DNA of 64,000 nt from the NCBI GenBank assembly GCA_964479535.1, contig CAYZMM010000004.1, forward strand, positions 70,459-134,458. Reading direction: 5' to 3'. The notes under the pieces were generated by a model. It searched no databases. It had not been told where the DNA came from and saw only the letters and a program-made list of their open reading frames with translations. This DNA is from an uncultured Thermodesulfobacteriota bacterium. GTDB lineage: Bacteria; Desulfobacterota; DSWW01. The position numbers were made by a program, and so were the translations under genes. This document shows, piece by piece, positions 22,122 to 62,413 of the stretch. Each line of letters opens with the position of its first letter. Positions within the stretch are counted from its first letter, which is position 1.

Positions 22122-22448
22122 CGTGACCTGCTTGCGCTCGCCCTCCAGTGCGGGCCTGGACTGCAGGATCCTGTCGGCCAGGTGCTTGGGGGTGTAGGAC
22201 TGAGGCCGGGAATAGTCGATGGGCGCAGCCGTTCTACACTTTAGAAATACGGAGTGGACCCTGTCAAGAGAATCCTTGAGGTCATGAAACGAGGAAAAGC
22301 CTATACGAGTCCGGAAGGAAACCGAGGGGCAGGGGAAATCCGAATCTCCTCTGTGTCAAGTCATCTGAGGACCAAAGGGGATTAACGGCCACTTCCCGAC
22401 GAGAGTCGGCATGCTCCCGATTGACAGCACCCCTCAGGAAGCCTTGAA

Positions 22449-22676
22449 TCACGTCTTCTTCAGGACCGATGCAGGGAGTTCTGCTTGATCGAGGATTGAC
22501 TTGATGGTTTTGGGAGCGAGAGTTTCCTTGGCATGAACCGGAACCGTAACGTGGAGTCTACCGTCTTCGCTCTCGAAATGGTGGTGACTGCCTCTCACGT
22601 GACTCAGAGAGAATCCATGTTTCATCAGGATCCTGCAGAGTTGCTTTCCTGTTACTCTTCCGAGTTTCCGAGTCAA
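22449..22676 (-). CDS. hicA: HicA toxin (mRNA interferase)
   Basis: 75 aa with the RGSHHHF...VTVPVH HicA signature. It has a 4-nt overlap with hicB. Confidence 0.8.
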   Translation of the reverse strand: MTRKLGRVTGKQLCRILMKHGFSLSHVRGSHHHFESEDGRLHVTVPVHAKETLAPKTIKSILDQAELPASVLKKT

Positions 22677-22906
22677 GCCGCGACCTCTATTCTGATTCTC
22701 GCATCCGGCTCAAACTCTCTGGGAACAGGCTTCTTCGCCTTCCTGAGACCCTCGATGTGACAGAGGATAGCCTCTCTCGCCCTGTCTATGCATTGCTCGA
22801 TGTCCTTCCCTTGCGTAACGCAGCCCGGAAGGACAGGAACCGTCACCGTAAACATCTTAGCCTCTTTGTCGTAATACAACTCGATGTTGTAAGTCAGTTT
22901 TCTCAT
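22673..22906 (-). CDS. hicB: HicB antitoxin (UPF0150 / RNase-H-like fold)
   Basis: YNIELYYDKEAKMFTVTVPVLPGCVTQG is typical of HicB. The start is at 22906, with 22924 possible. Confidence 0.75.
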   Translation of the reverse strand: MRKLTYNIELYYDKEAKMFTVTVPVLPGCVTQGKDIEQCIDRAREAILCHIEGLRKAKKPVPREFEPDARIRIEVAA

Positions 22907-22995
22907 ATCAAAATCCTCCAGCATCGAGTAATCTGGATGAGGCTCCGGTAGGCAGCAGCCCTTCACGACACCGAAGCCTGACCAGCAACAACCAA

Positions 22996-23024
22996 ATACT
23001 ACAGAAGGTCCGAAGAAATGACAA
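22996..23024 (-). promoter_or_regulatory. putative sigma70 promoter for hicBA (TTGTCA-17-TAGTAT on the minus strand)
   Basis: It sits roughly 70-90 nt upstream of the hicB start in locally AT-rich sequence. Confidence 0.3.
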
Positions 23025-23099
23025 TTGCGAACCGGTCCCTATCTCGCTTGCGCATTGAAATGATTCAAGATAAGGGTCGTGTGTTCTCCCTGGGGCGCC

Positions 23100-23330
23100 C
23101 ATGCCGGACAGACCTGCTTCCGTCCGTTGCCGGCAACTCCGCCAGCTCGTTCCTCACCTTGGCCGGCTCGGTCAGGTGTCCCAGTCGCTCGAAGATCACC
23201 AGGGCATCTGTCAGGTATTTTCGTGCCTCCTGCACGTTCCCCTGCTGCTTGTGGTACCGGCCCATGCCGGAGTAGTCAAGGGCCAGTTCGTTTTCGGCCT
23301 TGATCTCTCTGTTGATGGATACGCTCTCCC
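23100..23330 (-). pseudogene. orphan C-terminal TPR fragment of a further cyclase-STAND-TPR paralog (remnant)
   Basis: ENELALDYSGMGRYHKQQGNVQEARKYL...VRNELAELP closely parallels the extreme C-terminus of copy 4 (ENELALAYASMGRFYKMQGNMEKTREYL...VRKELADLP). Confidence 0.5.
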
Positions 23331-23601
23331 CAAGCTGAGACGATGATTGCGAGTTTGACCCTCTTACCGTCTTTCCTGCCCGTTCTACTCGGTGGACTTT
23401 AAAGCCCCCGTAAGGCAAAATCGTAAAAAGGAGGACAAACTTGCTTGAACGACCATAATCCTGTCTTCCTAACGCGGCTTGCACCTCAGAGGGAACGTCA
23501 GGATGATCAAGCCCGCCACAAGATGGTCTTGTCGACTTCTCCCTCTCGCTACGAATGTCTACTTCCTGTCGCTCTTGATGGTGCCCAGTGTCTGACGAGG
23601 T

Positions 23602-26600
23602 TCATGCCAGCTCGTCGAGAAGGGCCTTCGCCTCCTTCAGGTCGCGGGTATCGAGGCCCTCGGTGAACCAGTCGTAGACAGGTGCGAGTAGATCGCGGGC
23701 CTCTTGCCTGCGGCCCTGCTTCCGCCACAGGCGGGCGAGGCCCGTCGCGGCACGAAGCTCATAGGATTTCGCGCTCTGGCGCCGCGCTACCTCGAGCGCA
23801 TCGCGGAAGGACGCCTCCGCCCCTTCCGGGTCGGCAGGCGTACGAGCGAGAACCAACTCGGCCTTTACGCGATGCAATTCCGCCTCGCCCCAGTGTTCGC
23901 CGGTCTTCCTCACGAATTCCAGTTCCTCCGCGGCGGCGGCAAGCCCTTCCTCCACTTGCCCTGCCTTCCTGTGTGCTCCGGCCAAGAGGGCAAGATACCA
24001 CGACGATCCCACCACTGCCCCCCTGGCCCGCATACCCTCGATAACAGAGCGCATTCCGGCGATTCCCTCCTGCAGATCGCCCTGCTCAGCGAGAGCCGCG
24101 CCGCGAAAGCCGGCTCCGAATGCCAGATACGAAGGAAACCCCTGCTCGCTCGATAGGGCGATCAGCGTTTCTGCTGTCTCAAGGGAGGCCTTCGACTCGC
24201 GACGAAACATGTGGACGATACCGAGACCGAGGAGGGCAGTTCCCTCACTGAAGGCATGGGAGAGTTCCCGGGCAAGGGCGAGGCCCTGCCGGGCTCTTGT
24301 CAGGGCCTGATCCGCGTACCCGAACGGGAACAGCGTCCAGCTGAAGAAAAGGAGCCCCCATATGCCAACATTGGCTGTGGGCTTGAGGTATTCGTGGCCC
24401 CGGTGCTTCTTGGGGTCGTAGAGGCGGAGGAGCTCTTCGAGATGTTCCCGGGCCTCGTAAAACTCTCCCCGATAGAAGGATGCCACGCCCATGCCGAAGA
24501 GCGCACGCAGGAGTTGTCCCGGGTCGTGTGACTCGCGGGCCACACCGAGCAGTTCCTCGGCGAGCAATTGCGACTTGTCATGCTCAGCACGAGCGATTTG
24601 GACCGTCCGCAGTCCGTTCAACGCCGCAAACAACTGAGAAGCGTCCCCCAGGCACCGGGCGAGATCTCGGGCGCGCACATACGCCTGCTCCGCTTCCGCG
24701 GACGCCAAGCCCTCGATCACGAGCAAAGCCTGGCCGAGTGCGGACTGCACGACCAGCTCCAGCTCGTCCCGCTCCCGGGTGTCGGACAGGGTCTTCAGGA
24801 GTTCGAGAGCCTGCCTGAGCCGGGCGATAGCCTCGCCGTACGCCGAGCGCGCCACCGCCTGCTCACCGGCCAGCCGCAGGTACTCGACAGCCTTGGGCGT
24901 GTTCGCGCTCCGGCCGTAGTGATGGGCCAGTTCCTCGTAATGGGCGTCGAGCGCCTGAGGGTTGAGAGCCTCGATGGCCTGCCCGGTGCGCTCGTGCAGC
25001 ACGCCCCGGCGCTCCCGGAGTAGCGACCCGTACGCCACTTCCTACGTGAGTGCGTGCTTGAACGTGTACTCCGGGTCCGGAAAGGCCGGCCGCTCGTAGA
25101 TGAACTCCGCTGCCTGCAGATGCGAGAGCTCTCTGGAGAGATACTCCTCGGCCTCTCCGGCCACGGCGCGGATGAGGCCCAGGGAGAACTCCTTGCCGAT
25201 CACGGCCAGGGTCTGCAGCAGGTCCTTCTCCCGGGAAGGCAGCCGGTCGATGCGTGCCCCGATCACCCCCTGAACCGTGGCCGGGATGTGGAGTTCTGTC
25301 GGGGATCTCTTCAGACGGTAATGACCCGGCTCCCCTGCGAGCACCCCTTCCTCGACGAGCGTCTGCACCAGCTCCTCCAGGAAGAAGGGGTTTCCCTGGG
25401 TCTTGGAAAGGATGAGCCGGTCCAGGGCCTCCCGCTCTTCTCCCGCCCCTTCGCCCAGAAGGGCACCGAGCAGCTCCCTTGACTCCTCGGCTCCGAAAGG
25501 ATCCAGCCTGAGCTGCGTGTAGCAGGTCCTGCTCCCCCAGCCGTGCCCGTACTCGGGCCGGTAGTTGACCAGCAAGAGGAGCCTCGCCGTGGCCACACTG
25601 TCGACGAGCACGTCCAGGAAGGCCTGCGTCTCGGAGTCGATCCAGTGGAGATCCTCGAAGAGGAGAACACAGGGCTGGTTGAGGGTCTCCCGCACCAGCA
25701 CGCGTTTCACCGCCTCCAGGGCCCGCTGCCGCCGGATCTGCGGGTCCATCTGCTCGAGGGAGCCCGTCCTGTCTCCGATGCCGAGGAGGGTGAAGAGATA
25801 CGGCAGGGTGTCCTCGAGCGTGCGGTCCAGGGCGAGCACGGTCCCGGTGACCTTCTCCTGCCTCCGGCGCTCGTCGTCTTCGATCCGGATTCGGAAATAG
25901 CCCTTCAGAAGTTCGAGCAACGGCAGGTAGGCGTATGCCTTGCCGTGGGAGACCGAGAAGCCCTCGAGCACGCGGCAGCCGCTCGTAAGCTGCTCTTTGA
26001 ACTCGTAGAGGAGGCGCGACTTGCCCACACCCGCCTCGCCCAGCACTGCCACGATCTGCCCGCGGCCCGCCCGGGCTGCCTCCCAGGCGCGCTCAAGCTC
26101 TCCCATCTCCCGCCGCCGGCCCACGAAGCGCACAAGCCCTCGCCTCGCGGCTACCTCCATTTTCGTTCGCAGGGGGCCCACGCCCTGCAGCTCGAAGACA
26201 CGCAGCGGTTCCTGCACGCCCTGCACGTTGAAGCGGCCCAGATCGCTGAGGCGGAGCGCCGCGTAGCACGCCCGCTGCGCATGGTCCTCGTGGGCAATGG
26301 GCGCACCGAACAGCGCCATGATCCCGTCGCCCGTGTACTGGTTCACGGTTCCTTCGAAGCGGTGGACCCCATCGGCCAGGATCTGGAAGAAACGGTCGAG
26401 GATGCGGTGCCACTCCTCCGGGTCCACCTGCTCGGCCAGCTCCATGGACCCCTTCACGTCGGCGAAGAGGACGGTCACCTGCTTCCGCTCCCCATCCAGT
26501 GCGGACCCGGACTGCAGAATCCTGTCGGCCAGGTGTTTGGGCGTGTAAGACTGAGGCTGCAAGTGGTCTATCGTGGCGGCTTCAACAGGCTTTCTCAGGT

Positions 26601-26742
26601 CGTGGCCGCATCTATCACAGAACCTGCTTTCCGGTGTATTCAGGTTTGCGCATTGAGGGCAGGAGAGTTCCAGTTTGCTCCCGCACGCCTTGCAGAAGGT
26701 GGCCCCCTCTCTGTTTTCGGCGTGGCAAGTGGGGCACTTCAT
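23602..26742 (-). pseudogene. Zn-ribbon - cyclase - AAA/STAND - TPR paralog 2, disrupted by an in-frame TAG at 25039-25041 and an in-frame deletion of about 243 bp in the cyclase domain
   Basis: The two ORFs 25042..26742 and 23602..25038 share a frame and are separated only by TAG, where copy 1 has CAG. The cyclase domain lacks roughly 81 aa present in copies 1, 3 and 4. Confidence 0.75.
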
Positions 26743-26778
26743 CCAGGTCCTCCAAGCCGATTCAGGCGAATCGATGCC

Positions 26779-27183
26779 CTATAGCAATTTCACCTGTCTC
26801 AGGGCCTTGACCTTCCTGTGAAGCTTCTTGTCTGACGTGACGAGATCACACGCAAGCCGCCTTGCCAGCTCGACATATGCGGCATCGTAGAGGGTGATTC
26901 CATAGCGTCTGGACAATCGGATGGCGCTCGAGAACTCCTCGAATCCAAGGTCAAAGACCTGGAGGTCAAAATTCCACAGCATGGAGAACACCTCGGAGAC
27001 CGCCCCTGCATCCAGCCTTGTCCGCGTTAGGAGCACGTTGGCCGCTTCATAGAAGAACAGGTCCGGCACGGCGATCGGCTCTTCTCCGGAAACGTGCACG
27101 TCCCTGTAACGAAGGGCTCGATCACTGCCTTCCTCGTTCTCAAAGATCCACTTGAGGACGACCGATGCATCCAATACGATCAT
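26779..27183 (-). CDS. vapC: VapC PIN-domain toxin
   Basis: MIVLDASVV...YEAANVL...YDAAYVELA...TSD gives the PIN acidic residues. A 4-nt overlap with phd is present. Confidence 0.8.
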   Translation of the reverse strand: MIVLDASVVLKWIFENEEGSDRALRYRDVHVSGEEPIAVPDLFFYEAANVLLTRTRLDAGAVSEVFSMLWNFDLQVFDLGFEEFSSAIRLSRRYGITLYDAAYVELARRLACDLVTSDKKLHRKVKALRQVKLL

Positions 27184-27458
27184 CTGCTGTCTCTCATCTC
27201 GCGGATTGCCCCCGTCACATCCGTTCGGCTGGTCTCTTTCCCATGTCGCTCTTTCCACTTCTCCATGCCTGCACAGATCTCCTGAAGTTTCCGGCCCCTC
27301 TCCTTTTTCAGTATCCTCTCCTCATACTCATCTACGGAAATGATGACCGCGAGGGGCTTGTTTGCCCTTGACACGATGAAGCGCTCCTTTCGGTCGTGAA
27401 CCTCGTTCAGAATGCTTCCGAGCTTCTTCCTTAGGTCCAGCGCAGTCAGTCTCTTCAT
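27180..27458 (-). CDS. phd: Phd/YefM-family antitoxin
   Basis: 93 aa. FIVSRANKPLAVIISVDEYE is classic for Phd/YefM. Confidence 0.75.
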   Translation of the reverse strand: MKRLTALDLRKKLGSILNEVHDRKERFIVSRANKPLAVIISVDEYEERILKKERGRKLQEICAGMEKWKERHGKETSRTDVTGAIREMRDSR

Positions 27459-27480
27459 TGTCTTCTCCCTTCTGGGTTCA

Positions 27481-27510
27481 ACTATACTATGAGCTATCAT
27501 AGTCACTATG
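27481..27510 (-). promoter_or_regulatory. putative phd-vapC operator: inverted repeat CTATGA-N4-TCATAG plus ACTAT direct repeats immediately upstream of phd
   Basis: The palindrome at 27487-27502 lies 30-50 nt upstream of the phd start codon. Confidence 0.35.
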
Positions 27511-27732
27511 TCAATGAGATCTGGCCTGGGCTCCCTCCGAATGCGCCCTAAGACGTGATGCACGCGAGGGCCTCCCGGGCGCGGGTGAGCCAGTAGCTCC
27601 AGGGGGCGTTCATTTCCAGGCATACGGCTTCCGCTTTTTTCAGGTTACCCACGGCTTCTTCTCTTCTCTCCGGATCGGCGAACAGCCCCCCGAAGCGGTA
27701 GGGTGGATGAAGCGAAGCGAATCCGCCACAGT

Positions 27733-30700
27733 TCACGTAAGCTCCTCGAGAAGGGCCTTCGCCTCCTTCAGGTCGCGGGTGTCGAAGCCTTCCGTGAACC
27801 AGTGGTAGACCGGTGCGAGCAGCTCGCGGGCCTTTTGCTTGCATCCCTGCTGCTGCCATAGGCGGGCGAGGCCCGTCGCCGCTCGAAGCTCATATGATTT
27901 CGCGCTCTGGCGCCGCGCTACCTCGAGCGCATCGCGGAAGGACGCCTCCGCCCCTACTTGGTCGGCGGGTGTATGACCGAGAAGCAACTCGCCTTTTACG
28001 CGATGCAACTCTGCCTCCATCATGCGCTCGTCGGTCTTTGTCACGAATTCCAATCCCTGCGCCACGAGAGCGACACCTTCCTCCACTTGTCCTGCCTTCC
28101 TGTGTGCCCGGGCCAAGAGGGCAAGAAACCACGAAGATCCCAGGACTGCGCCCCTGGCCCGCATACCCTGGAGAACCGACCGCATCCCGGCGATTCCCTC
28201 CTGCAGCTGTCCCTCCTCGGTGAGCGCCTCGAGGCGAAGCCAGGCTCCGAATGCCAGATAGTACGCAAACCCATGCTCGCTTGAGAGATTGATTACAGCC
28301 TCTGCTGTCTGAAGAGATGCCTTAGAGTCGCGCCGCTCCAGGTAGATACGGCTAATACAGAATAGGGCAACTGACTCACTGAAGGGATCAGAGAGCTCCC
28401 GCGCCAGGGCGAGCCCCTCCAGGGCCCTCTTGAGGGCCTGGACCGGGTAACCGAGGGAGACAAGCGTCCAGCTGAAGAAGAAGAGGCCCCATACGCCAAC
28501 ATTCGCTGAGGCTGAGAGGTAATCATGGCCCCGATGTTTCTTCGGGTCGTAAAGGCCGAGGAATTCTTCGAGATGCTCTCGGGCCTCCGAAAACTCTCCC
28601 CGATAAAAGGATGTCCCGCTCATGGCATGCAGCGCGCGCAGGAGTTGTCCCGGGTCGCGTGACTCGCGGGCCACACGGAGCAGTTCCTCGGCGAGCAGAC
28701 GAGCTTTGTCATGCTCAGCACGTACCTGTTGGCCCGCCCGCAGTCCGGTCAACGCTGCAAACACCTGAGAAGCATTCCCCAGGCACTCAGCGAGATCCCG
28801 GGCGCGCAAATACGCCTGCTCTGCTTCCACGGACGCGAAGGTCTCGGTTACGTCCAAGGCCTGGCCGAGTGCGGACTGCAGGGACAGCTCCAGTTCGTCC
28901 CGCTCCCGGGTCTCGGGCAGGGTCTTCAGGAGTTCGAGAGCCTGCCTGAGCCTGTCGATCGCCTCCCCGTAGGCCGAGCGCGCCACCGCCTGCTCACCGG
29001 CCAGCCGCAGGTACTCCGCGGCCTTGGGCGTGTTCGCACTCCGGCCGTAGTGGTGGGCCAGCTCCTGGTAGTGCTCGTCGAGTGTTTCGCTGTAGACCTT
29101 CTCGATCGCCTGACCCACCCTCTCGTGTATTGCCCCGCGCCTCTCTCGCAGCATGGACCCGTACGCCACCTCCTGCGTGCGTGCGTGCTTGAACGTGTAC
29201 TCCGGGTCCGGAAAGGCCGGCCGCTCGTAGATGAACTCCGCTGCCTGCAGATGCGAGAGCTCTCTGGAGAGATACTCCTCGGCCTCTCCGGCCACGGCGC
29301 GGATGAGGCCCAGGGAGAACTCCTTGCCGATCACGGCCAGGGTCTGCAGGAGGTCCTTCTCCCGGGAAGGCAGCCGGTCGATGCGGGCCCCGATCACCCC
29401 CTGAACCGTGGCCGGTATGTGCAGCTCCCCCGGGGATCTCTTCAGACGGTAATGACCCGGCTCCCCTGCAAGCACCCCTTCCTCGACCAGGGTCTGCACC
29501 AGTTCCTCCAGGAAGAAGGGGTTTCCCTGGGTCTTCGCCATGATGAGCCGTTCGAGCTCGGTCCGATCTGCGCTTGCCTCATCCCCCAAGAGGGCTGTTA
29601 GTAGCTCCCGAGCCTCCACATCCCCCAGTGGATCCAGCCGGAGCTGTGTGTAGCAGGTCCTGCTCCCCCAACCGTGCCCGTACTCGGGCCGGTAGTTCAC
29701 CAGGAACAGGAGCCTGGCCGTGGCCACGCTGTCGACGAGCACGTACAGGAAGGCCTGGGTCTCGGAGTCGATCCAGTGAAGATCCTCGAAGACGAGCACA
29801 CAGGGCTGGTCGAGGGTCTCCCGCACCAGCACGCGCTTCACGGCCTCCAGGGTCCGCTGCCGCCGGATCTGTGGGTCCATCTGCTCGAGCGGGCCGGTCA
29901 GGTCTCCGATGCCCAGGAGGGTGAAGAGATACGGCAGGGTGTCCTCGAGCGTGCGGTCCAGGGTCAGCACGGTCCCGGTGACCTTCTCCCGCCTCCGGCG
30001 CTCGTCGTCTTCTAGGCCGATTCGGAAATACCCCTTCAGAAGCTCGAGCAACGGCAGGTAGGCGTATGCCTTGCCGTGGGAGACCGACAAGCCCTCGAGC
30101 ACGCGGCAGCCGCTCGTAAGCTGCCCCTTGAACTCGTAGAGCAGGCGCGACTTGCCCACACCCGCTTCGCCCAACACCGCCACAATCTGGCCGCGGCCCG
30201 CCTGGGCGGCCTCCCACGCCCGCTGGAGCTGCTCCATCTCCCTCTGCCGGCCCACGAAGCGCGAAAGCCCCCGTCTTTCGGCTACCTCCATTTTCGTTCG
30301 CAGGGGGCCCACGCCCTGCAGCTCGAAGACCCGCAGCGGTTCCTGCACGCCCTGCACGTTGAAGCGGCCCAGATCGCCCAGCCGGCAGAGGCCCTCGACC
30401 ATCTTGGCCGTGTGCTCGCTGAGATAAGCCTTTCCCGGCTCCGCCAGTTGCTCCATGCGCGCCGCAAGGCCCACGGTCTGGCCCTGGGCCGTGTAGTCCA
30501 TCCGCAGGTCGTCGCCGATCTTACCGACCACCACTTCGCCCGAGTTGAGCCCCATCCTGACCGAGAACCGAAGCCCCTTCTCCCGTTTCAACTCTGCCGC
30601 GTACCGCTGCAGTCCCTCGCTCAGGCGGAGCGCCGCGTAGCAGGCCCGCTGAGCGTGATCCTCGTGAGCGATCGGCGCCCCGAAGAGCGCCATGACACCG

Positions 30701-31116
30701 TCGCCGGTGTACTGGTTCACCGTTCCCTCGAAACGGTGCACGCCGTCCGCAAGGATCTGGAAGAACCGGTCGAGGATCCGGTGCCACTCCTCCGGGTCGG
30801 TCTGTTCAGCCATTTCCATCGAGCCCTTTACGTCTGCGAAGAGGACGGTGACCACTTTCCGTTCGCCCTCGATCGAGCTGCGGGTCGTGAGGATCTTTTC
30901 GGCAAGGTAGTTCGGGGTGTAGGACCGAGGTTGGGAGTAGTCGACGGCGGGCGTTGCTACGGGCTTGGTCAGGTCATGGGCGCAATCGCCGCAGAACTTA
31001 TCGTTCGGAAGAACTTCAGCCCCGCACTGAGGGCAGGCGAGGACGAGTCTCGCCGCACATGCCCGGCAGAACTTCTTGTTATCCGGGTTGTCCGTCTGGC
31101 ACTGAGGGCATTTCAT
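27733..31116 (-). CDS. double Zn-ribbon - class III nucleotidyl cyclase (CHD) - AAA/STAND NTPase - TPR protein, paralog 3 (intact, 1127 aa)
   Basis: Two CPxC...CxxC ribbons are followed by a full CHD domain, a P-loop NTPase and long TPR-like C-terminal helices. No interruptions are seen. Confidence 0.85.
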   Translation of the reverse strand: MKCPQCQTDNPDNKKFCRACAARLVLACPQCGAEVLPNDKFCGDCAHDLTKPVATPAVDYSQPRSYTPNYLAEKILTTRSSIEGERKVVTVLFADVKGSMEMAEQTDPEEWHRILDRFFQILADGVHRFEGTVNQYTGDGVMALFGAPIAHEDHAQRACYAALRLSEGLQRYAAELKREKGLRFSVRMGLNSGEVVVGKIGDDLRMDYTAQGQTVGLAARMEQLAEPGKAYLSEHTAKMVEGLCRLGDLGRFNVQGVQEPLRVFELQGVGPLRTKMEVAERRGLSRFVGRQREMEQLQRAWEAAQAGRGQIVAVLGEAGVGKSRLLYEFKGQLTSGCRVLEGLSVSHGKAYAYLPLLELLKGYFRIGLEDDERRRREKVTGTVLTLDRTLEDTLPYLFTLLGIGDLTGPLEQMDPQIRRQRTLEAVKRVLVRETLDQPCVLVFEDLHWIDSETQAFLYVLVDSVATARLLFLVNYRPEYGHGWGSRTCYTQLRLDPLGDVEARELLTALLGDEASADRTELERLIMAKTQGNPFFLEELVQTLVEEGVLAGEPGHYRLKRSPGELHIPATVQGVIGARIDRLPSREKDLLQTLAVIGKEFSLGLIRAVAGEAEEYLSRELSHLQAAEFIYERPAFPDPEYTFKHARTQEVAYGSMLRERRGAIHERVGQAIEKVYSETLDEHYQELAHHYGRSANTPKAAEYLRLAGEQAVARSAYGEAIDRLRQALELLKTLPETRERDELELSLQSALGQALDVTETFASVEAEQAYLRARDLAECLGNASQVFAALTGLRAGQQVRAEHDKARLLAEELLRVARESRDPGQLLRALHAMSGTSFYRGEFSEAREHLEEFLGLYDPKKHRGHDYLSASANVGVWGLFFFSWTLVSLGYPVQALKRALEGLALARELSDPFSESVALFCISRIYLERRDSKASLQTAEAVINLSSEHGFAYYLAFGAWLRLEALTEEGQLQEGIAGMRSVLQGMRARGAVLGSSWFLALLARAHRKAGQVEEGVALVAQGLEFVTKTDERMMEAELHRVKGELLLGHTPADQVGAEASFRDALEVARRQSAKSYELRAATGLARLWQQQGCKQKARELLAPVYHWFTEGFDTRDLKEAKALLEELT

Positions 31117-31175
31117 CCCGGCGCGTCCCGCATGGAGGATGGGTGGGAGTGACTCGGGGTGCTCGCGCTCGGGGG

Positions 31176-31365
31176 TGTTCTAAATGCTAGAAAATAAAGA
31201 TAAAGGAGTCAATAATTGTTTTGCGTCAGGTAGGGCGGGGGCCGTCTCGATGTGAGATGATGGCAAATTTCAACCGATTTGTTTTTTCCCGTATGTTTCA
31301 AATACTTGTGTTCATCTTGATGGATTGGCACGGCCGTTGCTCTACCCTGATCCAACAACACCCTC
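31176..31365. repeat. divergent-promoter module, copy A; homologous to 38968..39236, with a degenerate third copy near 22240..22290
   Basis: GTTCTAAATGCTAGAAAATAAAGATAAAGGAGTCAATAATTG and GATGGATTGGCACGGCCGTTGCTCTACCCTGATC are conserved between the copies. Confidence 0.6.
31326..31341 (+). promoter_or_regulatory. sigma54 (RpoN) -24/-12 promoter, TGGCACG-N4-TTGCT, oriented toward the MMPL-CNB gene
   Basis: A perfect match to the sigma54 consensus with correct spacing. The identical element recurs at 39191-39206. Confidence 0.55.
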
Positions 31366-31548
31366 TTCTCGCTGAACGAGGCGATGGAGCACTCCATCCT
31401 CCTGGGATTCTGAGCATTGGAAGTTCCCCCGGGGCCTTCCGCCGATTCACCGCAGGGCGGTGGATCGCGTTGACACCGGATTCCGGACTCCCCTATACTT
31501 CACCCCAGGCGGGCACCTCTCATCTTCTCTCAAGAAGATGGAGAACGT

Positions 31549-34296
31549 ATGGACCGATTCTACGGTTGGATCGTCCGCAGGCCGAAGCTGATTCTCCTCC
31601 TCCTCGTTCTTCCCACAGCATTCCTTGCCCTTCAGGCGCGACACATCCGGTTGGACAGCTCCATCGAGAGCCTCCTGCCGAGGGAAGACCCTGAAAAGAA
31701 GTACTACGAAGAGATTCGTCAACTCTACGGCAGTGACGAGATCGTCGTGATCGGCCTCATGGCGGACAACGTCTACAGGCCGGAAACCGTTCAGAAGATC
31801 GAGCGGATCACGGAAAAGATCCGAGAGATGCCCGAGGTGAAGAGCGTTGCGAGCCTCACCAACGCGCAGGATGTGATCAAATCCGTTGCCGAGGACACCC
31901 TGCTCATCCCGGAGATTCCCACCACCGAGGAAGGATGGGAAGAGGTCAAGGGCAGGGTCGCCGAGCACCCCGTCTATCTGAAGAACCTGGTCTCCCCCGA
32001 TGGTCGCGCGGCCGCGATCAACGTCACCTTCCTGGAGAGTGTGTCGGACGAGGCGTTCCTGCGCCGCGGGATCGACGAGAGAATTCAGAAGATCCTGGAC
32101 GCGGAACAGGGGCCGGAGAAGCTCTACTACACGGGGCTTCCTCGCTTCAAGGTCCACGTGGTCCAATCCATGCGGGGAGATTTGAAGTCCTTTCTCCCCC
32201 TGGTGCTGCTCTGCATCGCTGTCGTCATGTTCGCAAGCTTCCGCTCTCTGCGTGGGGTGATCCTGCCTGCGGTTACCTCCGTCGTAGGCCTGACCTGGAC
32301 CCTCGGGATCATGGTGCTGGCCGGAAGTTCCCTGAGCCTGGGGAGCATCACACTTCCCCCTTTGCTCCTCGTCCTGGGCACGGTCTACTCCCTGCACGTG
32401 GTGGCCGAGTACTACGAATTGGCCCGGCCCGGCACGCCGGCGGGCGAGGTGGTCCTCGAGACCCTCAGAAAGACCGGAATGCCCGTCCTGATTACGGCAC
32501 TGACCACCGCCCTGGGCTTCGCGGCCCTGGCCGTGAACCGCATCGTCAGTATCCGGGAGATGGGCCTCTTCTCCGCAGCAGGCATCCTGTTCGCCTTCCT
32601 GCTCTCGGTGACCCTTGTGCCGGCGATCCTCTGCCTGTTGCCGCTGCCCAAGAGGCGGGCAGACCGGTTTTCGCCCGTGTTGACCTCGACACTTCAACGG
32701 ATAAGCCGCCTGGACATCCGATACCGCAGGCCGATCATCCTTGCGGGAATCCTCATTGCGGTCCTCGCAGCCTGGCAGATTCCCTCGATCATGGTGGACT
32801 CGAACTTCCAGTCCTTCTTCCGCAAAGACGACCCGATCCGCAAGGCCAGCGATGTCATCAACGAGCATCTTGCCGGAAGCTCTGCCTTCTACGTCACCAT
32901 CGACGGCGAGAAGACGGGCCTCGTGAAGAAATGGGACACCTTGAAGCGAATCAAAGAGCTTCAGCTCTACATCGACGCTTTGCCCGGAATCGAGAAGACG
33001 ATTTCCCTGGTGGACTACTGCGAGATCCTGGACAGAGGGATTCAGGCCGTGCCCCCCTGGGAGGAACCGCCCGAGCCGCAGGAGCCGGAGCCCCAGACGA
33101 CCTTCTGGGAGAATCCTTCCCAGCTCGACGGCGTCATGCAGCTGGTGTTCCTGAATGCGAAGAGCATATCCGGCGTTGCGAACCATCCCGTGTTCTCGCG
33201 GACGAACATCATCGTTCGCACCTCCCTCACCCACGCCAGCGATGTGGCCGCCACGGTGGAGAAGATCGAGGCGTTTGCCGCCGAGACCTTTCCCCCGGAG
33301 CTCACCGTGAGGACCACCGGCGAGTTGATCCTTCACACTCGCACGAGCGGCGACATCGTGAGGGGGCAGATTCAGAGCCTGGGGCTTGCCGCCGGGATCA
33401 TCTTCCTCGTCATGTCGACCATGTTTCTCTCCGTTCGGATCGGCCTGATCGCCATGGTTCCGAACCTCTTCCCGATCATGGTCTTCTTCGGGCTCATGGG
33501 CGCCTCAGGGGCCGTCCTCAGCCTGAGCACGAATATCATTGCCGCGATTGTCCTGGGGATCGCCGTGGACGATACCATCCACCTCATGTCACGCCTGAGT
33601 TCCCAGGTCAGGGCAACGGCCGACCGGGAAGAGGCCCTCCTTCACACCTTCTCCACCGTGGGGAAGCCCGTCTTCTACACGTCCGTGATCCTGTTCCTGG
33701 GCTTTCTCACGCTCTGCGTCTCCTCCTTTGTGCCGATCCGGGAATTCGGCATTCTGGCCGCCTTCACGATGATCGTGGCTCTTGGCGCAGATGTGGTCTT
33801 GTTGCCCGCCATCCTGTCGACCACGCGGTTCATCACCCTGTGGGATCTGCTCTATCTCAAGCTGGGCCGGGATCCGCACAAGGTCATTCCCCTCTTTGAC
33901 GGACTGAGGCCCTTGCAGGCCAAGATCGTCACCCTCATGGGCGAACTCAAGACCTTCACCCACGGCGATGCGATCGTCCGTCAGGGGGATATGGGCAATG
34001 AAATGTTCGTTCTGCTCAAAGGCACGGCGGAGATTCACATCCAGGCCGAAGGCCGGTCCAGACGCATTGCCGGGCTCGAGAGAGGGGACGTCTTTGGAGA
34101 AATGGGACTGCTTCGCCATCATGAACGCACGGCAGACGTCGTTGCTTCCGAAGATGTGGAAGTCCTGGCCGTAAACGAGCGCTTCCTCTCGCGCATCAAG
34201 CGCCGGTACCCGCGAATCGGCGCCCAGATCTTCTTCAATGTGGCAAAGATCCTCAGTGACCGCCTCGAAGAGGCAAGAAAGGTCCCCTCGGTATAG
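31549..34296 (+). CDS. RND-superfamily MMPL/HpnN-like exporter (two SSD/12-TM halves) fused to a C-terminal cyclic-nucleotide-binding (CAP-family) domain
   Basis: 915 aa with MMPL-type TM/periplasmic-loop topology. The last roughly 120 aa carry FGEMGLL...R..TADVVA, the cNMP phosphate-binding cassette. Confidence 0.75.
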   Translation: MDRFYGWIVRRPKLILLLLVLPTAFLALQARHIRLDSSIESLLPREDPEKKYYEEIRQLYGSDEIVVIGLMADNVYRPETVQKIERITEKIREMPEVKSVASLTNAQDVIKSVAEDTLLIPEIPTTEEGWEEVKGRVAEHPVYLKNLVSPDGRAAAINVTFLESVSDEAFLRRGIDERIQKILDAEQGPEKLYYTGLPRFKVHVVQSMRGDLKSFLPLVLLCIAVVMFASFRSLRGVILPAVTSVVGLTWTLGIMVLAGSSLSLGSITLPPLLLVLGTVYSLHVVAEYYELARPGTPAGEVVLETLRKTGMPVLITALTTALGFAALAVNRIVSIREMGLFSAAGILFAFLLSVTLVPAILCLLPLPKRRADRFSPVLTSTLQRISRLDIRYRRPIILAGILIAVLAAWQIPSIMVDSNFQSFFRKDDPIRKASDVINEHLAGSSAFYVTIDGEKTGLVKKWDTLKRIKELQLYIDALPGIEKTISLVDYCEILDRGIQAVPPWEEPPEPQEPEPQTTFWENPSQLDGVMQLVFLNAKSISGVANHPVFSRTNIIVRTSLTHASDVAATVEKIEAFAAETFPPELTVRTTGELILHTRTSGDIVRGQIQSLGLAAGIIFLVMSTMFLSVRIGLIAMVPNLFPIMVFFGLMGASGAVLSLSTNIIAAIVLGIAVDDTIHLMSRLSSQVRATADREEALLHTFSTVGKPVFYTSVILFLGFLTLCVSSFVPIREFGILAAFTMIVALGADVVLLPAILSTTRFITLWDLLYLKLGRDPHKVIPLFDGLRPLQAKIVTLMGELKTFTHGDAIVRQGDMGNEMFVLLKGTAEIHIQAEGRSRRIAGLERGDVFGEMGLLRHHERTADVVASEDVEVLAVNERFLSRIKRRYPRIGAQIFFNVAKILSDRLEEARKVPSV

Positions 34297-34341
34297 AGCG
34301 AGTTGCCCGAACAGCCTTGCCGGGGAACCAGGGAGGCAGAG

Positions 34342-35169
34342 ATGAAGATCACCTTCTATGGCACCCGAGGCTCCACGCCCATACCTGAACCGGATTACTT
34401 CCAGGTCGGCGGCAACACACCGTGCGTCCTGTTCACTTCCGACAACGGAAGAATCGCCATCTTCGACGCGGGCACGGGAATCCGCAAGCTGGGCAACGAA
34501 CTGCTGGCTCGCGGGCACCAGCAGTTCGACAATATCTTCATCGCCCTCTCACATACCCACTGGCATCACATTCAAGGGTTCCCCTTCTTTCTCCCCGCAT
34601 ACGATCCGGCCCGCCACTTCACCATCACCATTATTGGAAGAGAGCGAGAGACGAAGAACCTCGAGGACATCTTTTCGACGCAGATGCAGCGCGAGTTCTT
34701 CCCCGTTCCCCTGGAGAAGATGGGGGCGAAGATGACCTTTTCCACACCCGAGACAACCCGTTTTACCACGCCGATTACAGGAAACAAGGTGATTACGCTC
34801 AGGCACAACCATCCTGGTGGGGCCTACAGCTACCGCGTCGAGGGTTCCGGAAAGACCTTCGTCTACTGCACGGATGTGGAACACACGGATGGGATCGATC
34901 CGAACATCGTCGCCCTCGCCAGAGAGGCCGACCTTCTGGTCCATGATGCACAGTTCACCCCGGAGGAGCTGAAGGAGAAGAAAGGCTGGGCCCACAGCAG
35001 TTGGGAGCAGGCGGTGGAGGTGGCGGAGCAATCCGGCGCAAAGAGACTGGCGCTCTTTCATCACGATCCGGAACACAGCGACCCCTTTCTCTTCCGAATG
35101 GAGAAAGCGTGTCAGAAGCGGTTCGCAGAGGCCTTTCTTGCCCGAGAGGGAATGGAAATCGAGTTATAG
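34342..35169 (+). CDS. MBL-fold metallo-hydrolase (atypical HTHWHH motif); candidate cyclic-nucleotide phosphodiesterase by context
   Basis: SHTHWHH, a CTDVEH motif and a C-terminal HHDPEH follow the MBL pattern. A GGGAGG RBS precedes the ATG at 34342. Confidence 0.55.
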   Translation: MKITFYGTRGSTPIPEPDYFQVGGNTPCVLFTSDNGRIAIFDAGTGIRKLGNELLARGHQQFDNIFIALSHTHWHHIQGFPFFLPAYDPARHFTITIIGRERETKNLEDIFSTQMQREFFPVPLEKMGAKMTFSTPETTRFTTPITGNKVITLRHNHPGGAYSYRVEGSGKTFVYCTDVEHTDGIDPNIVALAREADLLVHDAQFTPEELKEKKGWAHSSWEQAVEVAEQSGAKRLALFHHDPEHSDPFLFRMEKACQKRFAEAFLAREGMEIEL

Positions 35170-35502: not shown

Positions 35503-37359
35503 TTATCCTTCCGAAGGTAAATCTGCCAGCTCCTTCCTAACCTTCTCCGGCTCAATCAGGGCACCCAATCGCTCGAGAATCTTCACGGCATCGGCCAGGT
35601 ATTCGCGGGTCTTTTCCATGTTTCCTTGCATCTTGTAGAAGCGGCCCATAGACGCGTAGGCTAGGGCGAGTTCATTCTCGGCCTTGTTTTCCTTTGCCAG
35701 TTCCACACTTCTCTCAAAATGGGGAAGACCTTCTTCCGAACCGGTTGCCACGGCAATTTCTCCAAGCAGTCGGTAAGCCCATGGGAGGAACACGCGCCCG
35801 TTGCGGCGGGATTGCAGTTCAAGATGTACGTCAAGCATTTCCCTCGCTTTATCGTGCTCTTGTTCCGAACAGAACACTTCTCCTAGAATGGCGGTGGAGA
35901 AGAGTTCGGCCACTACGAATCGCGAGCTTCTGAACAGAGGGATAAGAGTCTCGATCACCTCCGGTTCTTTCCCTACATTGCCCGTTCGGCAACGGGCCCA
36001 GGCCAGGCATGTTATCGCCAGAGCCATGTCTCCCGGCGTGGAAGCCTTTTGCACCGCCAACTCGCCATATGCTATCGCTTGCTGGAGATCCCATTTGAAC
36101 GTGTGCGATACGCATAGTGTGAAGTAAGACCATGAGCTGTTGCTGTTATCCGCGTAGTTCTCAGCGATCCTGCATGCCTCTTCACCCAGCTTTTCCGCCT
36201 CACTCCACCGTCCGAGAAATGCGTTCGTCCATGTTGCTGCATTCAACGCCCACACCGAAGTACGGAGGTTGAACTGTTTGTCCATCTGGGCGAAGCACTT
36301 CTCCTTCAATGAGGACACCGCCTCCAGATCGCCCAACCACATATGATCCCATTCCATAATGCAGTACGCATACCCTGCATCTTCAGCATTTCCCGCCGAC
36401 TCACACAGTTCGGCCGCTTTACTCAGTGTAGATATGCCTTGCCGTGGGAGACCGAGAAAGCTTCCAGTACCCGGCATCCCTTAGCCAGAGGTGTCTTGAA
36501 CTCATAGACAACGCAACAGGCCTCGTTTCGCCGACACCTCCAAGGGGGTCCTTATCGGCCCTACGCCCTGAAGCTCGTATACACGCAGCGCCTCCGAGGT
36601 TCCCGCGATTTTCGACTCCCCCAGGTCCAGGAGTTGGAAAACCCCCTCCACGAGCCGCGCCGTGTGTTGGCTCAGATAGGCGTGGCCCGGCTCTGCGAGT
36701 TGCTCGACTCGCTGCGCTAAACCCACCGTCTGCCCCTGAGCCGTGTAGTCCATGCGCAGGTCATCTCCGATCCTCCCCACCACCACTTCCCCGGAATTCA
36801 GGCCGAGACGGGCCGAGAAGTTCAAGCCCCGCTGCAAGCGAAGCTCTTGCGCGTACTTTCTAAGTTGCTCACAGAGTGCCAGAGCCGAGTAGCAGGCCCT
36901 CTGCGCATGGTCTTCGTGCGCGATAGGCGCACCGAAGAGCGCCATGATCCCGTCACCCGTGTACTGGTTGATGGTCCCTTCGTAACGGTGGACCCCATCG
37001 GCCAGGATCTGGAAGAAACGATCAAGGATCCGGTGCCACTCCTCGGGGTCGACCTGTTCGGCCAACTCCATGGACCCTTTCACGTCGGCAAACAGCACCG
37101 TCACCTGCTTCCGTTCGCCTTCAAGTGCCGACTTGGTCTGGAGGATCTTGTCGGCGAGATATTTGGGGGTGTAGGACTGAGGCTGAGAGTAGTCGATCGA
37201 AGGGGCCTCCGCGGGCTTTCTGAGATCATGGCCGCATTTCTTGCAGAATTTGCCATCCGCGGGCGTCTCCGACCCGCATTTGGGGCAACGGTATTCGATG
37301 GGATTCCCGCAGTCGATGCAAAACTCAGCATCGTCAGGGTTCTGTTTGACAAAGCCCGT
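35503..37359 (-). pseudogene. Zn-ribbon - cyclase - [AAA domain deleted] - TPR paralog 4; no start codon ahead of the Zn-ribbon
   Basis: Cyclase ORF 36502..37104 and TPR ORF 35503..36477 lie in different frames with no P-loop region between them. The Zn-ribbon coding sequence (37105-37359) follows the acyl-CoA ligase TAG stop in frame, without any ATG/GTG/TTG. Confidence 0.65.
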
Positions 37360-38937
37360 CTACTCTCCTGACAGGGTTTTCGCTTTGAGGGTTCTCTTGT
37401 CTACCTTTCCTGTGGGATTGATGGGCATGGAGTCAAGGAATCGGATATCCCGGGGACGCTTGTAGTCGGCCAGTTTGTCCTGGGTGAAATCGTGGAGTTC
37501 TTCGGCTGTGACCTTCTCGCCCGGCTTCAGTGCCACGAAGGCCAGTACGTCTTCGCCGAGCTCCGGATGGGGCTTTGCAACCACCGCGCACTGTCCCACA
37601 GCCGGGTGTTCGTACAAAACACTCTCCACCTCCAAGGAGTAGACGTTGAATCCCCCGCGGACGATCATGTCCTTCTTGCGGTCTGTGAAGTAGAGGTAAC
37701 CCTCGTCATCGCTCCGTCCCATGTCTCCGGTGTAAAGCCAGCCGTCTCGTAGGGTCTGCGCGGTAGCTTCCGGGTTCTTGTAGTATTCCTTCATGACGTT
37801 CGGCCCACGGAGGACGATCTCTCCCACGTCTCCAGGGTCCAGGTTGTGTCCCTGGTCGTCCACGATCCGGAATTCCTGTTCCGGTGCCCACGGATGGCCC
37901 ACCGATCCAAGCTTGGTGTGTGTTTCAGCCGCATTCAGGGTTGTCCCACCGGTCCCCGCCTCTGTCAGGGCATAGGTCGTGTATACCTTGATACCCGGCC
38001 ACGCAGCGTGCACTCTCCGGATGACTTCCTCGGGCATGGCCGCAGCGCCCGAGATGAGCGACCGAAGGGAGGAGGTGTCGAACTCTCTGAATCGAGGGTG
38101 ATTCAAGAGGAAGACAAACATGGCGGGTGCACCGCCGTAGCTCGTGGGCCGTTCCTTCTCGATGGTCTCAAAGGTCTTCACCGGGTCGAAGGTTTCCTCG
38201 AGGATGAGTACCGGCGCGGAATAGAGCCACAACATCATGACCGAGCTGCAGCCGCTCGAGGTGAAAAAAGGGTAGCAATTCTGGGTGCGGGGCACTCCGT
38301 GATGAAGGCGTGACAAACCTAGGGAAGCGCCGATCAATCGGCCACAGGCAACCTTGTTCGCCTGGGTGAGTACAACCCCCTTCGGAAGGCCCGTGGTCCC
38401 GCTTGTGTACAATATGTCGGCTTCATCGTCCGGGCCGATGGAGACTGCCGGTGGAGAGCCCGAGGAAGCCATCCGCTTCGTGAACGATTCGACCCAGTCC
38501 GGCAGTTCCTGTCCCTCCTTTTCGATTCCCACATAGCCCTTGATGTTCAGCCGCTCCCGTATCTGATCGACCAGGGGAAGGAAGTCGTGCCCTCCGATCA
38601 TCCAGTCCGCGTCCGAGTGCTCCACGATGTACTCCACTTCCCGCGGGACCAGCCGGACGTTGATCGGGACGAACACGGCACCCAGCTTGTGGATCGCGAG
38701 GTACGTGTAGTAGCACTCGACGCTGTTGGTGAGCATGAACGCGACCTTCTCACCCTTCTTCACACCCAGGTCTGAAAGTCCGGCCGCGAGCCGTGTCGAC
38801 TGCTCGTCCATCTCCCCCCAGGTGTGACGAAGCCACTCCCTGGTCCGGTACGAGAAGGAAACAAAGGCCTCCCGGTCCGGGAAGTCGTCCACGTTTCGCT
38901 CCAGCAATTCGCGAATGGTCTCCGGTGCTCGCCACAT
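37360..38937 (-). CDS. acyl-CoA synthetase (AMP-binding enzyme, medium-chain/aryl type)
   Basis: 525 aa with the YTSGTTGLPKG adenylation motif. It ends on a TAG stop. Confidence 0.8.
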   Translation of the reverse strand: MWRAPETIRELLERNVDDFPDREAFVSFSYRTREWLRHTWGEMDEQSTRLAAGLSDLGVKKGEKVAFMLTNSVECYYTYLAIHKLGAVFVPINVRLVPREVEYIVEHSDADWMIGGHDFLPLVDQIRERLNIKGYVGIEKEGQELPDWVESFTKRMASSGSPPAVSIGPDDEADILYTSGTTGLPKGVVLTQANKVACGRLIGASLGLSRLHHGVPRTQNCYPFFTSSGCSSVMMLWLYSAPVLILEETFDPVKTFETIEKERPTSYGGAPAMFVFLLNHPRFREFDTSSLRSLISGAAAMPEEVIRRVHAAWPGIKVYTTYALTEAGTGGTTLNAAETHTKLGSVGHPWAPEQEFRIVDDQGHNLDPGDVGEIVLRGPNVMKEYYKNPEATAQTLRDGWLYTGDMGRSDDEGYLYFTDRKKDMIVRGGFNVYSLEVESVLYEHPAVGQCAVVAKPHPELGEDVLAFVALKPGEKVTAEELHDFTQDKLADYKRPRDIRFLDSMPINPTGKVDKRTLKAKTLSGE

Positions 38938-38967
38938 AGTGCTCCCCCATTTCTCGGTGATGAAACC

Positions 38968-39236
38968 GTTCTAAAACATAGAAAATAGAGATAAGAGTGT
39001 CAATGATTTCTTTGTGTTCGGAAAGGTGTGGGCGCCGTGAAGGGGGATGGCAGCACATGTCAATCGAGTGGGCTTTTGGATAGTTCCTTTTTGCTCGTAA
39101 AGAAAATATACGAACCGTCGGCAGTTGCAGGCTCCTCCGCATTCTTCTAAAAGCTATACACTTTGGGGGTTTATGTTTGGCCTGATGGGATGGCACGTCC
39201 GTTGCTCTACCCTCTGATCAAACAAGAAACCCAAAC
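38968..39236. repeat. divergent-promoter module, copy B (homolog of 31176..31365)
   Basis: On the minus strand it gives TTGACA-17-TATGTT upstream of the acyl-CoA synthetase. On the plus strand it gives the sigma54 element. Confidence 0.6.
39191..39206 (+). promoter_or_regulatory. sigma54 -24/-12 promoter, TGGCACG-N4-TTGCT, oriented toward the small ORF and the PAS kinase
   Basis: The core is identical to the element at 31326-31341. Confidence 0.5.
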
Positions 39237-39271
39237 ACGGAGGACAGCATGAGAGAAGGGAGGGTGTCACA

Positions 39272-39478
39272 ATGAAAGCGAGTAGAAACACCATCCGACT
39301 CCGAGGGCCGGCTGATGTTTCGTCGCCCTGGGAAGAGGTGAAGGAGTGGGCGAGAAGGAACGTCACGAACGATAGGGTTGCTGAGGTCAGCCTGTCACTG
39401 GCGGCCGCTGCTTCGCTATGCTATCTGGGAGCCAGGATCTTCGTGGGTGTGCAGAACTACGTGATGTATGCCTATTAG
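39272..39478 (+). CDS. hypothetical small protein (68 aa) with a C-terminal hydrophobic segment
   Basis: A GGGAGGG RBS sits 8 nt before the ATG. It lies about 55 nt downstream of the sigma54 element. Confidence 0.35.
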   Translation: MKASRNTIRLRGPADVSSPWEEVKEWARRNVTNDRVAEVSLSLAAAASLCYLGARIFVGVQNYVMYAY

Positions 39479-39501
39479 GCGGGTTACGTCTGAGCTGAGG
39501 G

Positions 39502-39521
39502 ATTCCCGCCTACGCGGGAAT
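39502..39521 (+). terminator. stem-loop ATTCCCGC-ctac-GCGGGAAT downstream of the small ORF
   Basis: An 8-bp perfect stem with no T-tract, so a classic intrinsic terminator is doubtful. Confidence 0.2.
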
Positions 39522-39736
39522 GACTGAGAAGTGAGCGAATGAACCGCACCTCCAAGCCACCCCTGGATTCCGGCGAGTGCGGTAATGGCGGGTCCTGCTA
39601 TGATGTGCAAGAATAGACGGCCCCTCAAAACCGAAGGCTTCACGCTCACTCCTTCACTTCGGCTCTCCCCCAAAAAGCTTCTCCCAAATGTAGAATCCAT
39701 TGTTCTCCCCCCTGCAATTGCAGAAAATCTATTTCC

Positions 39737-39764
39737 TTGACAAGATAATTTTAATTTATATAAA
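39737..39764 (+). promoter_or_regulatory. sigma70-like promoter (TTGACA-16-TATAAA) with a 12-bp perfect palindrome CTGCAATTGCAG at 39712-39723 just upstream
   Basis: An AT-rich tract sits ahead of the kinase gene. Confidence 0.35.
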
Positions 39765-39883
39765 GTTTATTTGCCGCAGAGGTCCTGTGCCCCCAAGGAC
39801 TACTCGCCCTTACGTTGCTCTCTCTGGTGCTCATCCTGCCCCGGAGGGGGACACTGTTTCGCCTTTTGGAGCGAGAAGCTGAC

Positions 39884-61128: not shown

Positions 61129-61168
61129 ATGGCACCTCTCCTCTTTCGAGGCTGTCCCGCCAGCCTCC

Positions 61169-62383: not shown

Positions 62384-62413
62384 CCTGTCGTATCCCCTTG
62401 CGGGTTTGCACCC

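Follow-up and report, generated by a model that had tools for sequence, protein, structure and literature searches.

In a 64,000-nt stretch of DNA from an uncultured Thermodesulfobacteriota bacterium (contig CAYZMM010000004.1, positions 70,459 to 134,458 of the forward strand; hereafter, the window, with positions counted from its first nucleotide), three neighboring genes encode a class III nucleotide cyclase (27733-31116, minus strand), an MMPL/HAE3-type resistance-nodulation-division (RND) transporter that ends in a cytoplasmic cyclic nucleotide-binding (CNB) domain (31549-34296, plus strand), and a metallo-β-lactamase (MBL)-fold hydrolase (34342-35169, plus strand). The coordinates and domain content ascribed to these genes in a first-pass annotation, made from the sequence alone, were both confirmed by the open reading frame (ORF) listing and by Pfam. 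The locus is interpreted here, at somewhat less than even probability, as a local cyclic-nucleotide signaling module that controls an envelope-lipid exporter. In the proposed mechanism, the cyclase would stay inactive until a ligand occupies its TPR/ATPase sensor part and would then make a 3′,5′-cyclic nucleotide: probably cAMP, by analogy with Rv0386, or possibly a nucleotide with another base, given the Gln/Thr specificity residues of the enzyme. This nucleotide would bind the CNB domain of the transporter and alter the proton-driven export of a hydrophobic envelope component, which in other genomes would be handed to a LolA-like periplasmic carrier, and the MBL-fold protein, presumably cotranscribed with the transporter and related to RNase Z and the atypical class II phosphodiesterases (PDEs), would hydrolyze the nucleotide and reset the system. 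Which nucleotide is made, in which direction it regulates the exporter, and what the transporter and the MBL-fold protein act on are presumptive, while the proposal builds on the observed domain content, an intact nucleotide-binding cassette, the recurrent adjacency of cyclase and exporter genes, and the signaling context of the MBL family.

The exporter (915 aa) is, by sequence criteria, a sound candidate for the reader of a cyclic nucleotide. Its cNMP_binding domain (PF00027; aa 801-884, nt 33949-34200, plus strand) scored 70.2 bits against a cut-off of 27.5, with a match that covers profile positions 2-86 of 89, and the best sequence matches of this domain in the PDB were the CNB domains of PKG, PKA-R, CRP, and SthK. 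The phosphate-binding cassette, FGEMGLLRHHERTADVVA (aa 849-866, nt 34093-34146, plus strand), retains its Gly, Glu, Arg, and Thr-Ala residues (FGEMGL...ERTA) on alignment. With the score clearly over the cut-off and the cassette residues intact, the earlier claim of a C-terminal cyclic nucleotide-binding domain holds. Across 29 aligned family members, including the window protein, the Gly-Glu...Arg-Thr-Ala pattern occurs in 21 and the Arg in 28. A variant cassette without the ribose-binding Glu, FGVTSL...ER(V/I)S, is present in 8 of the 29 (columns aa 845-866), whose ligand may differ or be lacking altogether.

The remainder of the protein is a complete RND transporter. An AlphaFold2 model (pLDDT 82) contains two repeats, each composed of one transmembrane (TM) helix, a large periplasmic domain, and five TM helices, followed by a beta-roll after TM12; its closest folds in Foldseek were MmpL4/5, MmpL3, NPC1, and HpnN (E values of 1e-26 to 1e-19). 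Pfam assigned it to MMPL (137 bits), with an additional sterol-sensing/Patched match, and the NCBIfam models TIGR00921 (HAE3) and HpnN gave 252 bits (cut-off 352) and 142 bits (cut-off 752), respectively; the exporter is thus related to, but not a member of, these curated subfamilies. With HpnN and the other HAE3/MMPL lipid transporters (MmpL3/4/5, NPC1) it shares the 12-TM RND fold and the two periplasmic domains, and it differs from them in its C-terminal CNB domain, since the solved MmpL/HpnN chains match the transporter part only. All of the best 120 among its 603 homologs, which are named only "MMPL family transporter" and come from Binatia, Deltaproteobacteria, and metagenome-assembled genomes of Methylomirabilota, carry PF00027. 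The commonest immediate neighbors of the MMPL-CNB family are LolA_like (20/88) and DUF1329 (10/88) genes, partners that are typical of HAE3 loci and that point to a periplasmic hand-over of hydrophobic cargo. A role in lipid export would accordingly be read from these neighbors, the HAE3/HpnN scores, and the MmpL/NPC1/HpnN folds. The window exporter has no LolA-like neighbor of the kind typical of its family; a LolA_like gene (62414-63226) is located 28 kb from it, beside two MacB/FtsX-type permease genes (59898-63226, minus strand).

CNB domains are attached to membrane transport proteins elsewhere, for instance in the cNMP-regulated channels MlotiK1 and SthK and in mycobacterial CNB-transporter fusions, and TIGR03896 describes CNB proteins encoded beside bacteriocin ABC exporters. 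The window protein departs from all of these in that the partner of its CNB domain is an RND/MMPL transporter, and a full-text literature search found no paper on an RND/MMPL/HAE3 transporter with a cNMP-binding domain.

The candidate writer is a protein of 1127 aa (designated P3, as one of four cyclase paralogs in the window, all on the minus strand) in which Pfam identified a DZR double zinc ribbon (aa 3-45), a Guanylate_cyc domain (aa 87-262, nt 30331-30858; 78 bits against a cut-off of 21.9), an AAA_16 STAND ATPase (aa 286-471, nt 29704-30261; 88 bits), and TPR repeats. Both metal-binding Asp residues of class III cyclases are present (in FADVKG and TGDGV), and a Walker A motif (GEAGVGKS) and the sequence VLVFEDLHW, followed by TPR_12 matches after AAA_16, identify the central and C-terminal parts as a STAND NTPase. 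The succession of cyclase domain, AAA_16 STAND ATPase, and TPR is shared with the Rv0386 type (cyclase homology domain [CHD]-ATPase-TPR-helix-turn-helix) and with the TIGR03903 TOMM kinase/cyclase family, whose model reached 437 bits of the required 706 on aa 77-1085 of P3. P3 differs from these types in having an N-terminal double zinc ribbon in place of a kinase domain, in the absence of a C-terminal helix-turn-helix, in the Thr at its second specificity position, and in the Gly/His at the position of the catalytic Asn. The zinc-ribbon/cyclase/AAA_16 family is enormous, with all but one of 8000 scored candidates at E ≤ 1e-20, and extends over Binatia, Myxococcota, Methylomirabilia, Terriglobia, and Dehalococcoidia.

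A comparative analysis supports the link between writer and reader that the first-pass annotation had drawn from this locus alone. Exporter loci were collected from a scan of species-representative genomes (80 loci) and, for close relatives, from database look-ups, and their genes were identified in six-frame ORFs with iterated hidden Markov models (HMMs). The ±10 kb flanks of the 55 MMPL-CNB genes contain nine class III cyclase genes, all of them no more than 2.5 kb from the exporter (231 kb of flank); the 490 kb farther out contains none, and neither does the 363 kb around 27 MMPL genes without a CNB domain. Under uniform placement, all nine would fall this near with p ~4e-5, or ~1e-3 when only six lineages are counted. 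About six different arrangements were observed, some of them operon-like and including a LolA-like gene: the cyclase is divergent and adjacent in the window and L008, divergent with a spacer gene in L007 and L013, and of the CHD-TPR type and immediately downstream of the exporter in L082; and the order is MMPL-CNB, DUF1329/LolA-like, CHD-AAA_16-TPR in L016. On contig NZ_JAUASX010000017 of Solimonas sp. SE-A11, a cultured organism, a zinc-ribbon-CHD-AAA_16 cyclase gene precedes a LolA_like gene by 127 nt, and MMPL-CNB follows after another 27 nt. Such varied arrangements are the usual signature of functional coupling, and cyclases thus recurrently and nonrandomly adjoin MMPL-CNB genes. An exporter-specific cyclase subfamily, considered because the cyclase domains of Solimonas and the window are 62-70% identical, was rejected, as the whole DZR-CHD-AAA_16 family is 54-60% identical across phyla.

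The candidate eraser is a 275-aa protein (Lactamase_B_2, PF12706; 77 bits) whose gene begins 45 nt after the exporter stop codon, with no terminator-like site between the two, so that cotranscription is likely. A mechanically called ORF would start at TTG 34303; the ATG at 34342, which the earlier annotation had chosen, is the right one, being preceded by a GGGAGG ribosome-binding site and fitting the N termini of 32 homologs. The family comprises >4000 matches of 64-90% identity and 274-275 aa in Thermodesulfobacteriota/Deltaproteobacteria. Atypical class II PDEs (Rv1339, YhfI, and CpdA) are defined by PF12706 together with the motif [T/S]HxHxDH and are akin to RNase Z (Thomson et al., PMC9293780), and YhfI prefers cAMP and cGMP (Hobbs et al., PMC9117128). 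The family motif SHTHWDH fits this signature, and the fold and length (~250-275 aa) agree with those of Rv1339, Bacillus subtilis YhfI, and Corynebacterium glutamicum CpdA. Fold searches placed the protein in a phosphodiesterase branch with RNase Z, YhfI, PhnP, yeast PDE1, and Apyc1, with YhfI and its orthologue 1zkp among the top matches, and a PDB sequence search returned weak RNase Z/YhfI matches only; these searches assign a clade and not a substrate.

The genomic company of the MBL family also connects it with signaling. The family alignment was used to scan metagenomes, and the 80 loci recovered (545 kb) contain eight cyclase genes and encode four CNB proteins. A cyclase is the gene next to MBL in L101 and L141, MBL is followed by a CNB protein and then a cyclase in L090, and a CRP-type regulator lies upstream of MBL in L107. 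In L164, a single ORF (321-2636, plus strand) encodes an MBL-REC-CNB-GGDEF fusion, which links the family to both cyclic mononucleotide and cyclic di-GMP signaling. The canonical residues of adenylate cyclases (Lys, Thr/Ser, Asn, and Arg) are present in five of the eight neighboring cyclases, and CHASE2-type proteins account for three of these five. Among immediate neighbors, Response_reg (16/93), Hpt, histidine kinase, and GAF domains predominate. Closer to the window protein, a CHD-TPR cyclase lies 2.7 kb away from one MBL of 82% identity, and another 82%-identical copy has no such neighbor. Signaling genes, including cyclases and cNMP-binding proteins, are thus the usual company of this family, which makes a signaling phosphodiesterase likelier than an RNA-processing enzyme, without fixing the substrate.

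Several observations weigh against a dedicated module, and the first of these concern catalysis. Alignment of P3 with CyaC, CyaB, and Cya2 gave the catalytic residues D/Q/D/T/G/R, as compared to the canonical D/K/D/T/N/R. Gln and Thr therefore replace the purine-specifying pair (Lys with Asp/Thr for ATP; Glu with Cys/Gly for GTP), and a Gly occupies the position of the transition-state Asn wherever the window copies still have this region (three copies), while the Arg is kept. The first-pass annotation had suggested predicting purine-versus-pyrimidine specificity from such residues; with the canonical purine pair and the catalytic Asn both absent, the activity and product of P3 are uncertain, and neither product nor rate can be inferred from this active site. 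The same deviations recur among the 120 closest relatives of P3 (metal Asp residues invariant, Gln in 110, Thr in 92, and, at the Asn position, His 61 times, Gly 36 times, and Asn 14 times) and are therefore a family trait and not a sign of decay. Rv0386 reportedly combines a similar overall architecture with a Gln at the specificity Lys position and is said to make cAMP and some cGMP.

The second set of observations concerns the company that the three genes keep. Any two of the three components occur together in five of nine contigs from close relatives, and either the exporter gene or the MBL gene stands by itself in relatives at 82-84% identity. Outside the window, MBL and the exporter are found together only in L084/L085; these represent one organism, in which MMPL-CNB is followed by MBL and, convergently, by an intact DZR-CHD-AAA_16-TPR cyclase, with otherwise unrelated flanks. 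Moreover, when 83 MMPL-family loci from other genomes (53 with a scorable CNB domain) were searched by tblastn and with iterated HMMs, no MBL relative was found, and a conserved three-gene unit was rejected on this ground. Among the loci surveyed, co-occurrence of the three genes therefore extends to one other lineage only; the "self-contained" circuit of the first-pass annotation is not a conserved unit, and the term does not apply to most members of the family. The cyclase of L084 is 39-48% identical to the window paralogs, as compared to 81% for the exporter and 87% for MBL, indicating that the cyclase partner is not a conserved orthologue. Furthermore, 46 of the 55 MMPL-CNB loci have no adjacent cyclase, and many genomes carry several copies of the cyclase family, which makes chance adjacency likelier.

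These same findings favor an alternative in which the genes are co-located without forming a dedicated circuit: the CNB domain would read the cell-wide cAMP pool, the cyclase array would be a hot spot of duplication and decay, and MBL would have an unrelated role. The size and multicopy nature of the cyclase family, the nonorthologous cyclases of the window and L084, the solitary exporters and solitary MBL genes of close relatives, and the rarity of a neighboring cyclase are all as this alternative would have it, as is the patchwork character of the region, with its paralog segments of up to 100% identity, three broken cyclase copies, VapC/Phd pair, and gene fragments. Against it stand the confinement of nine of nine flanking cyclases to the 2.5 kb nearest the exporter, their absence beside MMPL genes without CNB, the operon-like arrangements in distant taxa, and the independent association of the MBL family with cyclases and CNB proteins. 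On balance, plain co-location is considered rather unlikely, though it retains real weight.

The third set of observations concerns the eraser. In the metal-binding motif of the window MBL, HTHWHH (34552-34569, plus strand), a His codon (CAT, 34564-34566; His75) occupies a position that is Asp in all 32 aligned relatives, so that the window protein is the only one of 33 sequences with SHTHWHH. The NCBIfam model for Rv1339-type PDEs, NF041851, aligned over the full length (residues 14-258) with 49 bits against a cut-off of 400, which sets the protein apart from the atypical class II PDEs as a separate family, ~20% identical to YhfI; the HxHxHH of the window copy is a further difference. Thus, a cyclase-exporter link could be real and MBL could still have another role, such as that of an RNase Z/ElaC-like nuclease, a 2′,3′-cyclic or PhnP-type PDE, or a cyclic-dinucleotide hydrolase. 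This possibility, also regarded as doubtful, draws on the best fold and sequence matches, which are to RNase Z/ZiPD; on the JGI name of the family, "phosphoribosyl 1,2-cyclic phosphodiesterase"; on a mean column identity of 77% in the family alignment, as expected of a housekeeping enzyme; on the GGDEF domain in the L164 fusion; and on the lack of MBL relatives across the MMPL-family loci surveyed. The RNase_Z model TIGR02651, however, gave 84 bits against a cut-off of 293 and matched the C-terminal half only, and the protein is ~40 residues shorter than RNase Z where the tRNA-binding arm lies. Its neighbors are signaling and not RNA-processing genes, with cyclases and CNB proteins recurring nearby, and YhfI, which is structurally close to it, hydrolyzes cAMP and cGMP (PMC9117128).

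The proposal that the MBL protein may be a class II-type PDE is supported by its place in the phosphodiesterase branch and its signaling context and weakened by the His in place of an invariant Asp and by scores under the curated cut-offs; likewise, the grouping with RNase Z or lactamases that was to count against it resolved into an RNase Z/YhfI/Apyc1 phosphodiesterase clade, with the RNase_Z model itself falling short of its cut-off. An eraser role of MBL remains plausible and, given the substitution, may be impaired in the window genome. The Asp-to-His change and the three broken cyclase copies may mean that the signaling module has been partly eroded in this organism.

The first-pass annotation likened the locus to Pycsar, in which a PycC cyclase and a CNB-fused effector reportedly act together in antiphage defense. 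Taken at face value, a phage-sensing STAND cyclase would make a (pyrimidine) cyclic nucleotide that turns the membrane protein lethal. A class III-type cyclase does stand beside a CNB-bearing membrane protein, and PADLOC models for PycC (86 bits) and for Pycsar effectors (58 bits) matched its cyclase and CNB domains, respectively. The STAND-TPR architecture and fast paralog turnover resemble those of immune sensors, the cyclase active site is noncanonical, a toxin-antitoxin pair lies inside the cyclase array, and MBL is a distant relative of the anti-Pycsar nuclease Apyc1, with a weak match to the Pfam Apyc1 family in precomputed annotation. However, the PADLOC matches reflect generic domain homology, and MBL had no PADLOC match at all. 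The cyclase is a zinc-ribbon/STAND/TPR sensor of 1127 aa, and the supposed effector is a full 12-TM RND transporter of 915 aa from a family conserved in hundreds of genomes, usually with a LolA-like partner; the two are divergently transcribed, in contrast to the two-gene Pycsar operon of PycC and a CNB domain fused to a small TM or TIR module. A host-encoded eraser cotranscribed with the effector is not a Pycsar feature, and the flanks contain metabolic and signaling genes and no defense island. The likeness is thus confined to the domain level, and the LolA-like partner and metabolic surroundings suggest a role in envelope physiology and not in abortive infection, leaving a Pycsar-like system highly improbable.

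The lipid transporters of the RND/MMPL type, which build the envelopes of bacteria, are drug targets, and the literature searched turned up no post-translational second-messenger control of them. If the locus is indeed a signaling module, a cyclic nucleotide could gate the export of envelope lipids, the zinc-ribbon/cyclase/STAND/TPR family, very large and obscure in function, would gain a concrete output, and a conserved MBL family would join the short list of bacterial cNMP phosphodiesterases. A broader generalization is advanced only tentatively and is thought less probable than not: MMPL-CNB proteins would be widespread, undescribed second-messenger-gated RND lipid exporters, a subset of which have their own NLR-like (STAND/TPR) cyclase; LolA-carried outer-membrane lipid trafficking would be switched by a local cyclic nucleotide, possibly other than cAMP or cGMP in view of the conserved Gln/Thr/(His, Gly) site; and the MBL family would form a new branch of cNMP phosphodiesterases. 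The cyclase, LolA-like, and MMPL-CNB genes of cultured Solimonas sp. SE-A11 open the idea of a cyclic nucleotide-gated exporter to genetics.

The region between the divergent cyclase and exporter genes (31117-31548) contains several candidate promoter elements. A sigma-70-like TTGACA-18-TATACT sequence (31470-31499, plus strand) is located 50 nt upstream of the exporter, and a weaker sigma-70-like site (31212-31184, minus strand) faces the cyclase. Farther upstream of the exporter is a sigma-54-type -24/-12 element, TGGCACGGCCGTTGCT (31326-31341, plus strand). Its pattern, TGGCACG-N4-TTGCT, has two perfect matches in the window, as compared to 0.04 expected, and the second (39191-39206, plus strand) lies upstream of a PAS hybrid histidine kinase gene (39815-42649); both elements are inside a 43-nt direct repeat (31306-31348 and 39171-39213; 81% identical). 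This arrangement suggests RpoN-dependent control common to the exporter-MBL pair and the kinase. A search for the element at the corresponding place in 50 other exporter loci found none, so that it is a feature of the window genome and not of the exporter family. A search of positions 18-44 kb against Rfam found no RNA family at gathering score, so the long leader is not explained by a riboswitch.

The exporter-MBL pair is embedded among the four tandem cyclase paralogs, of which only P3 is intact. P1 (19290-22355, minus strand; CHD-AAA_16-TPR, without a zinc ribbon) has no start codon upstream of its cyclase domain, the first start being a GTG at 22121 inside that domain. P2 (23602-26742, minus strand) is split by a stop codon at 25039-25041, and only the first half of its cyclase domain remains, the second having been deleted according to Pfam and alignment. 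P4 (35503-37359, minus strand), which is convergent with the MBL gene, occupies the position held by the intact cyclase in L084; its zinc ribbon and cyclase domain lie in a frame (36505-37359) that has no start codon and directly abuts the stop codon of an acyl-CoA ligase gene (complete ligase, 37360-38937), and a stop after the cyclase domain is followed by a separate TPR ORF (35503-36477), with the ATPase region deleted. Segments of the paralogs across 19290-31116 and 35503-37359 have 79-100% DNA identity, and 300 nt are 100% identical between P1 (20776-21075) and P2 (25370-25669). Such identity and the three broken copies indicate recent duplication or gene conversion with decay or, alternatively, possibly an assembly artefact of a repeat array. 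Wedged between two of the cyclase paralogs are genes for a VapC (PIN) toxin (26779-27258, minus strand) and a Phd/YefM antitoxin (27180-27623, minus strand). Two gene fragments were also noted, namely, an AMP-binding (acyl-CoA ligase) piece adjoining P1 (18676-19365, minus strand) and a stray TPR piece between P1 and P2 (23065-23484, minus strand).

Overall, the window is chromosomal in character (~64% G+C), and its wider content consists of metabolic, transport, and two-component genes and not of defense genes. A segment of lower G+C content (0.51-0.57 over positions 38000-44000, as compared to ~0.64 elsewhere), which spans the PAS hybrid kinase gene and an ion-channel gene (42835-43548), may represent acquired DNA.

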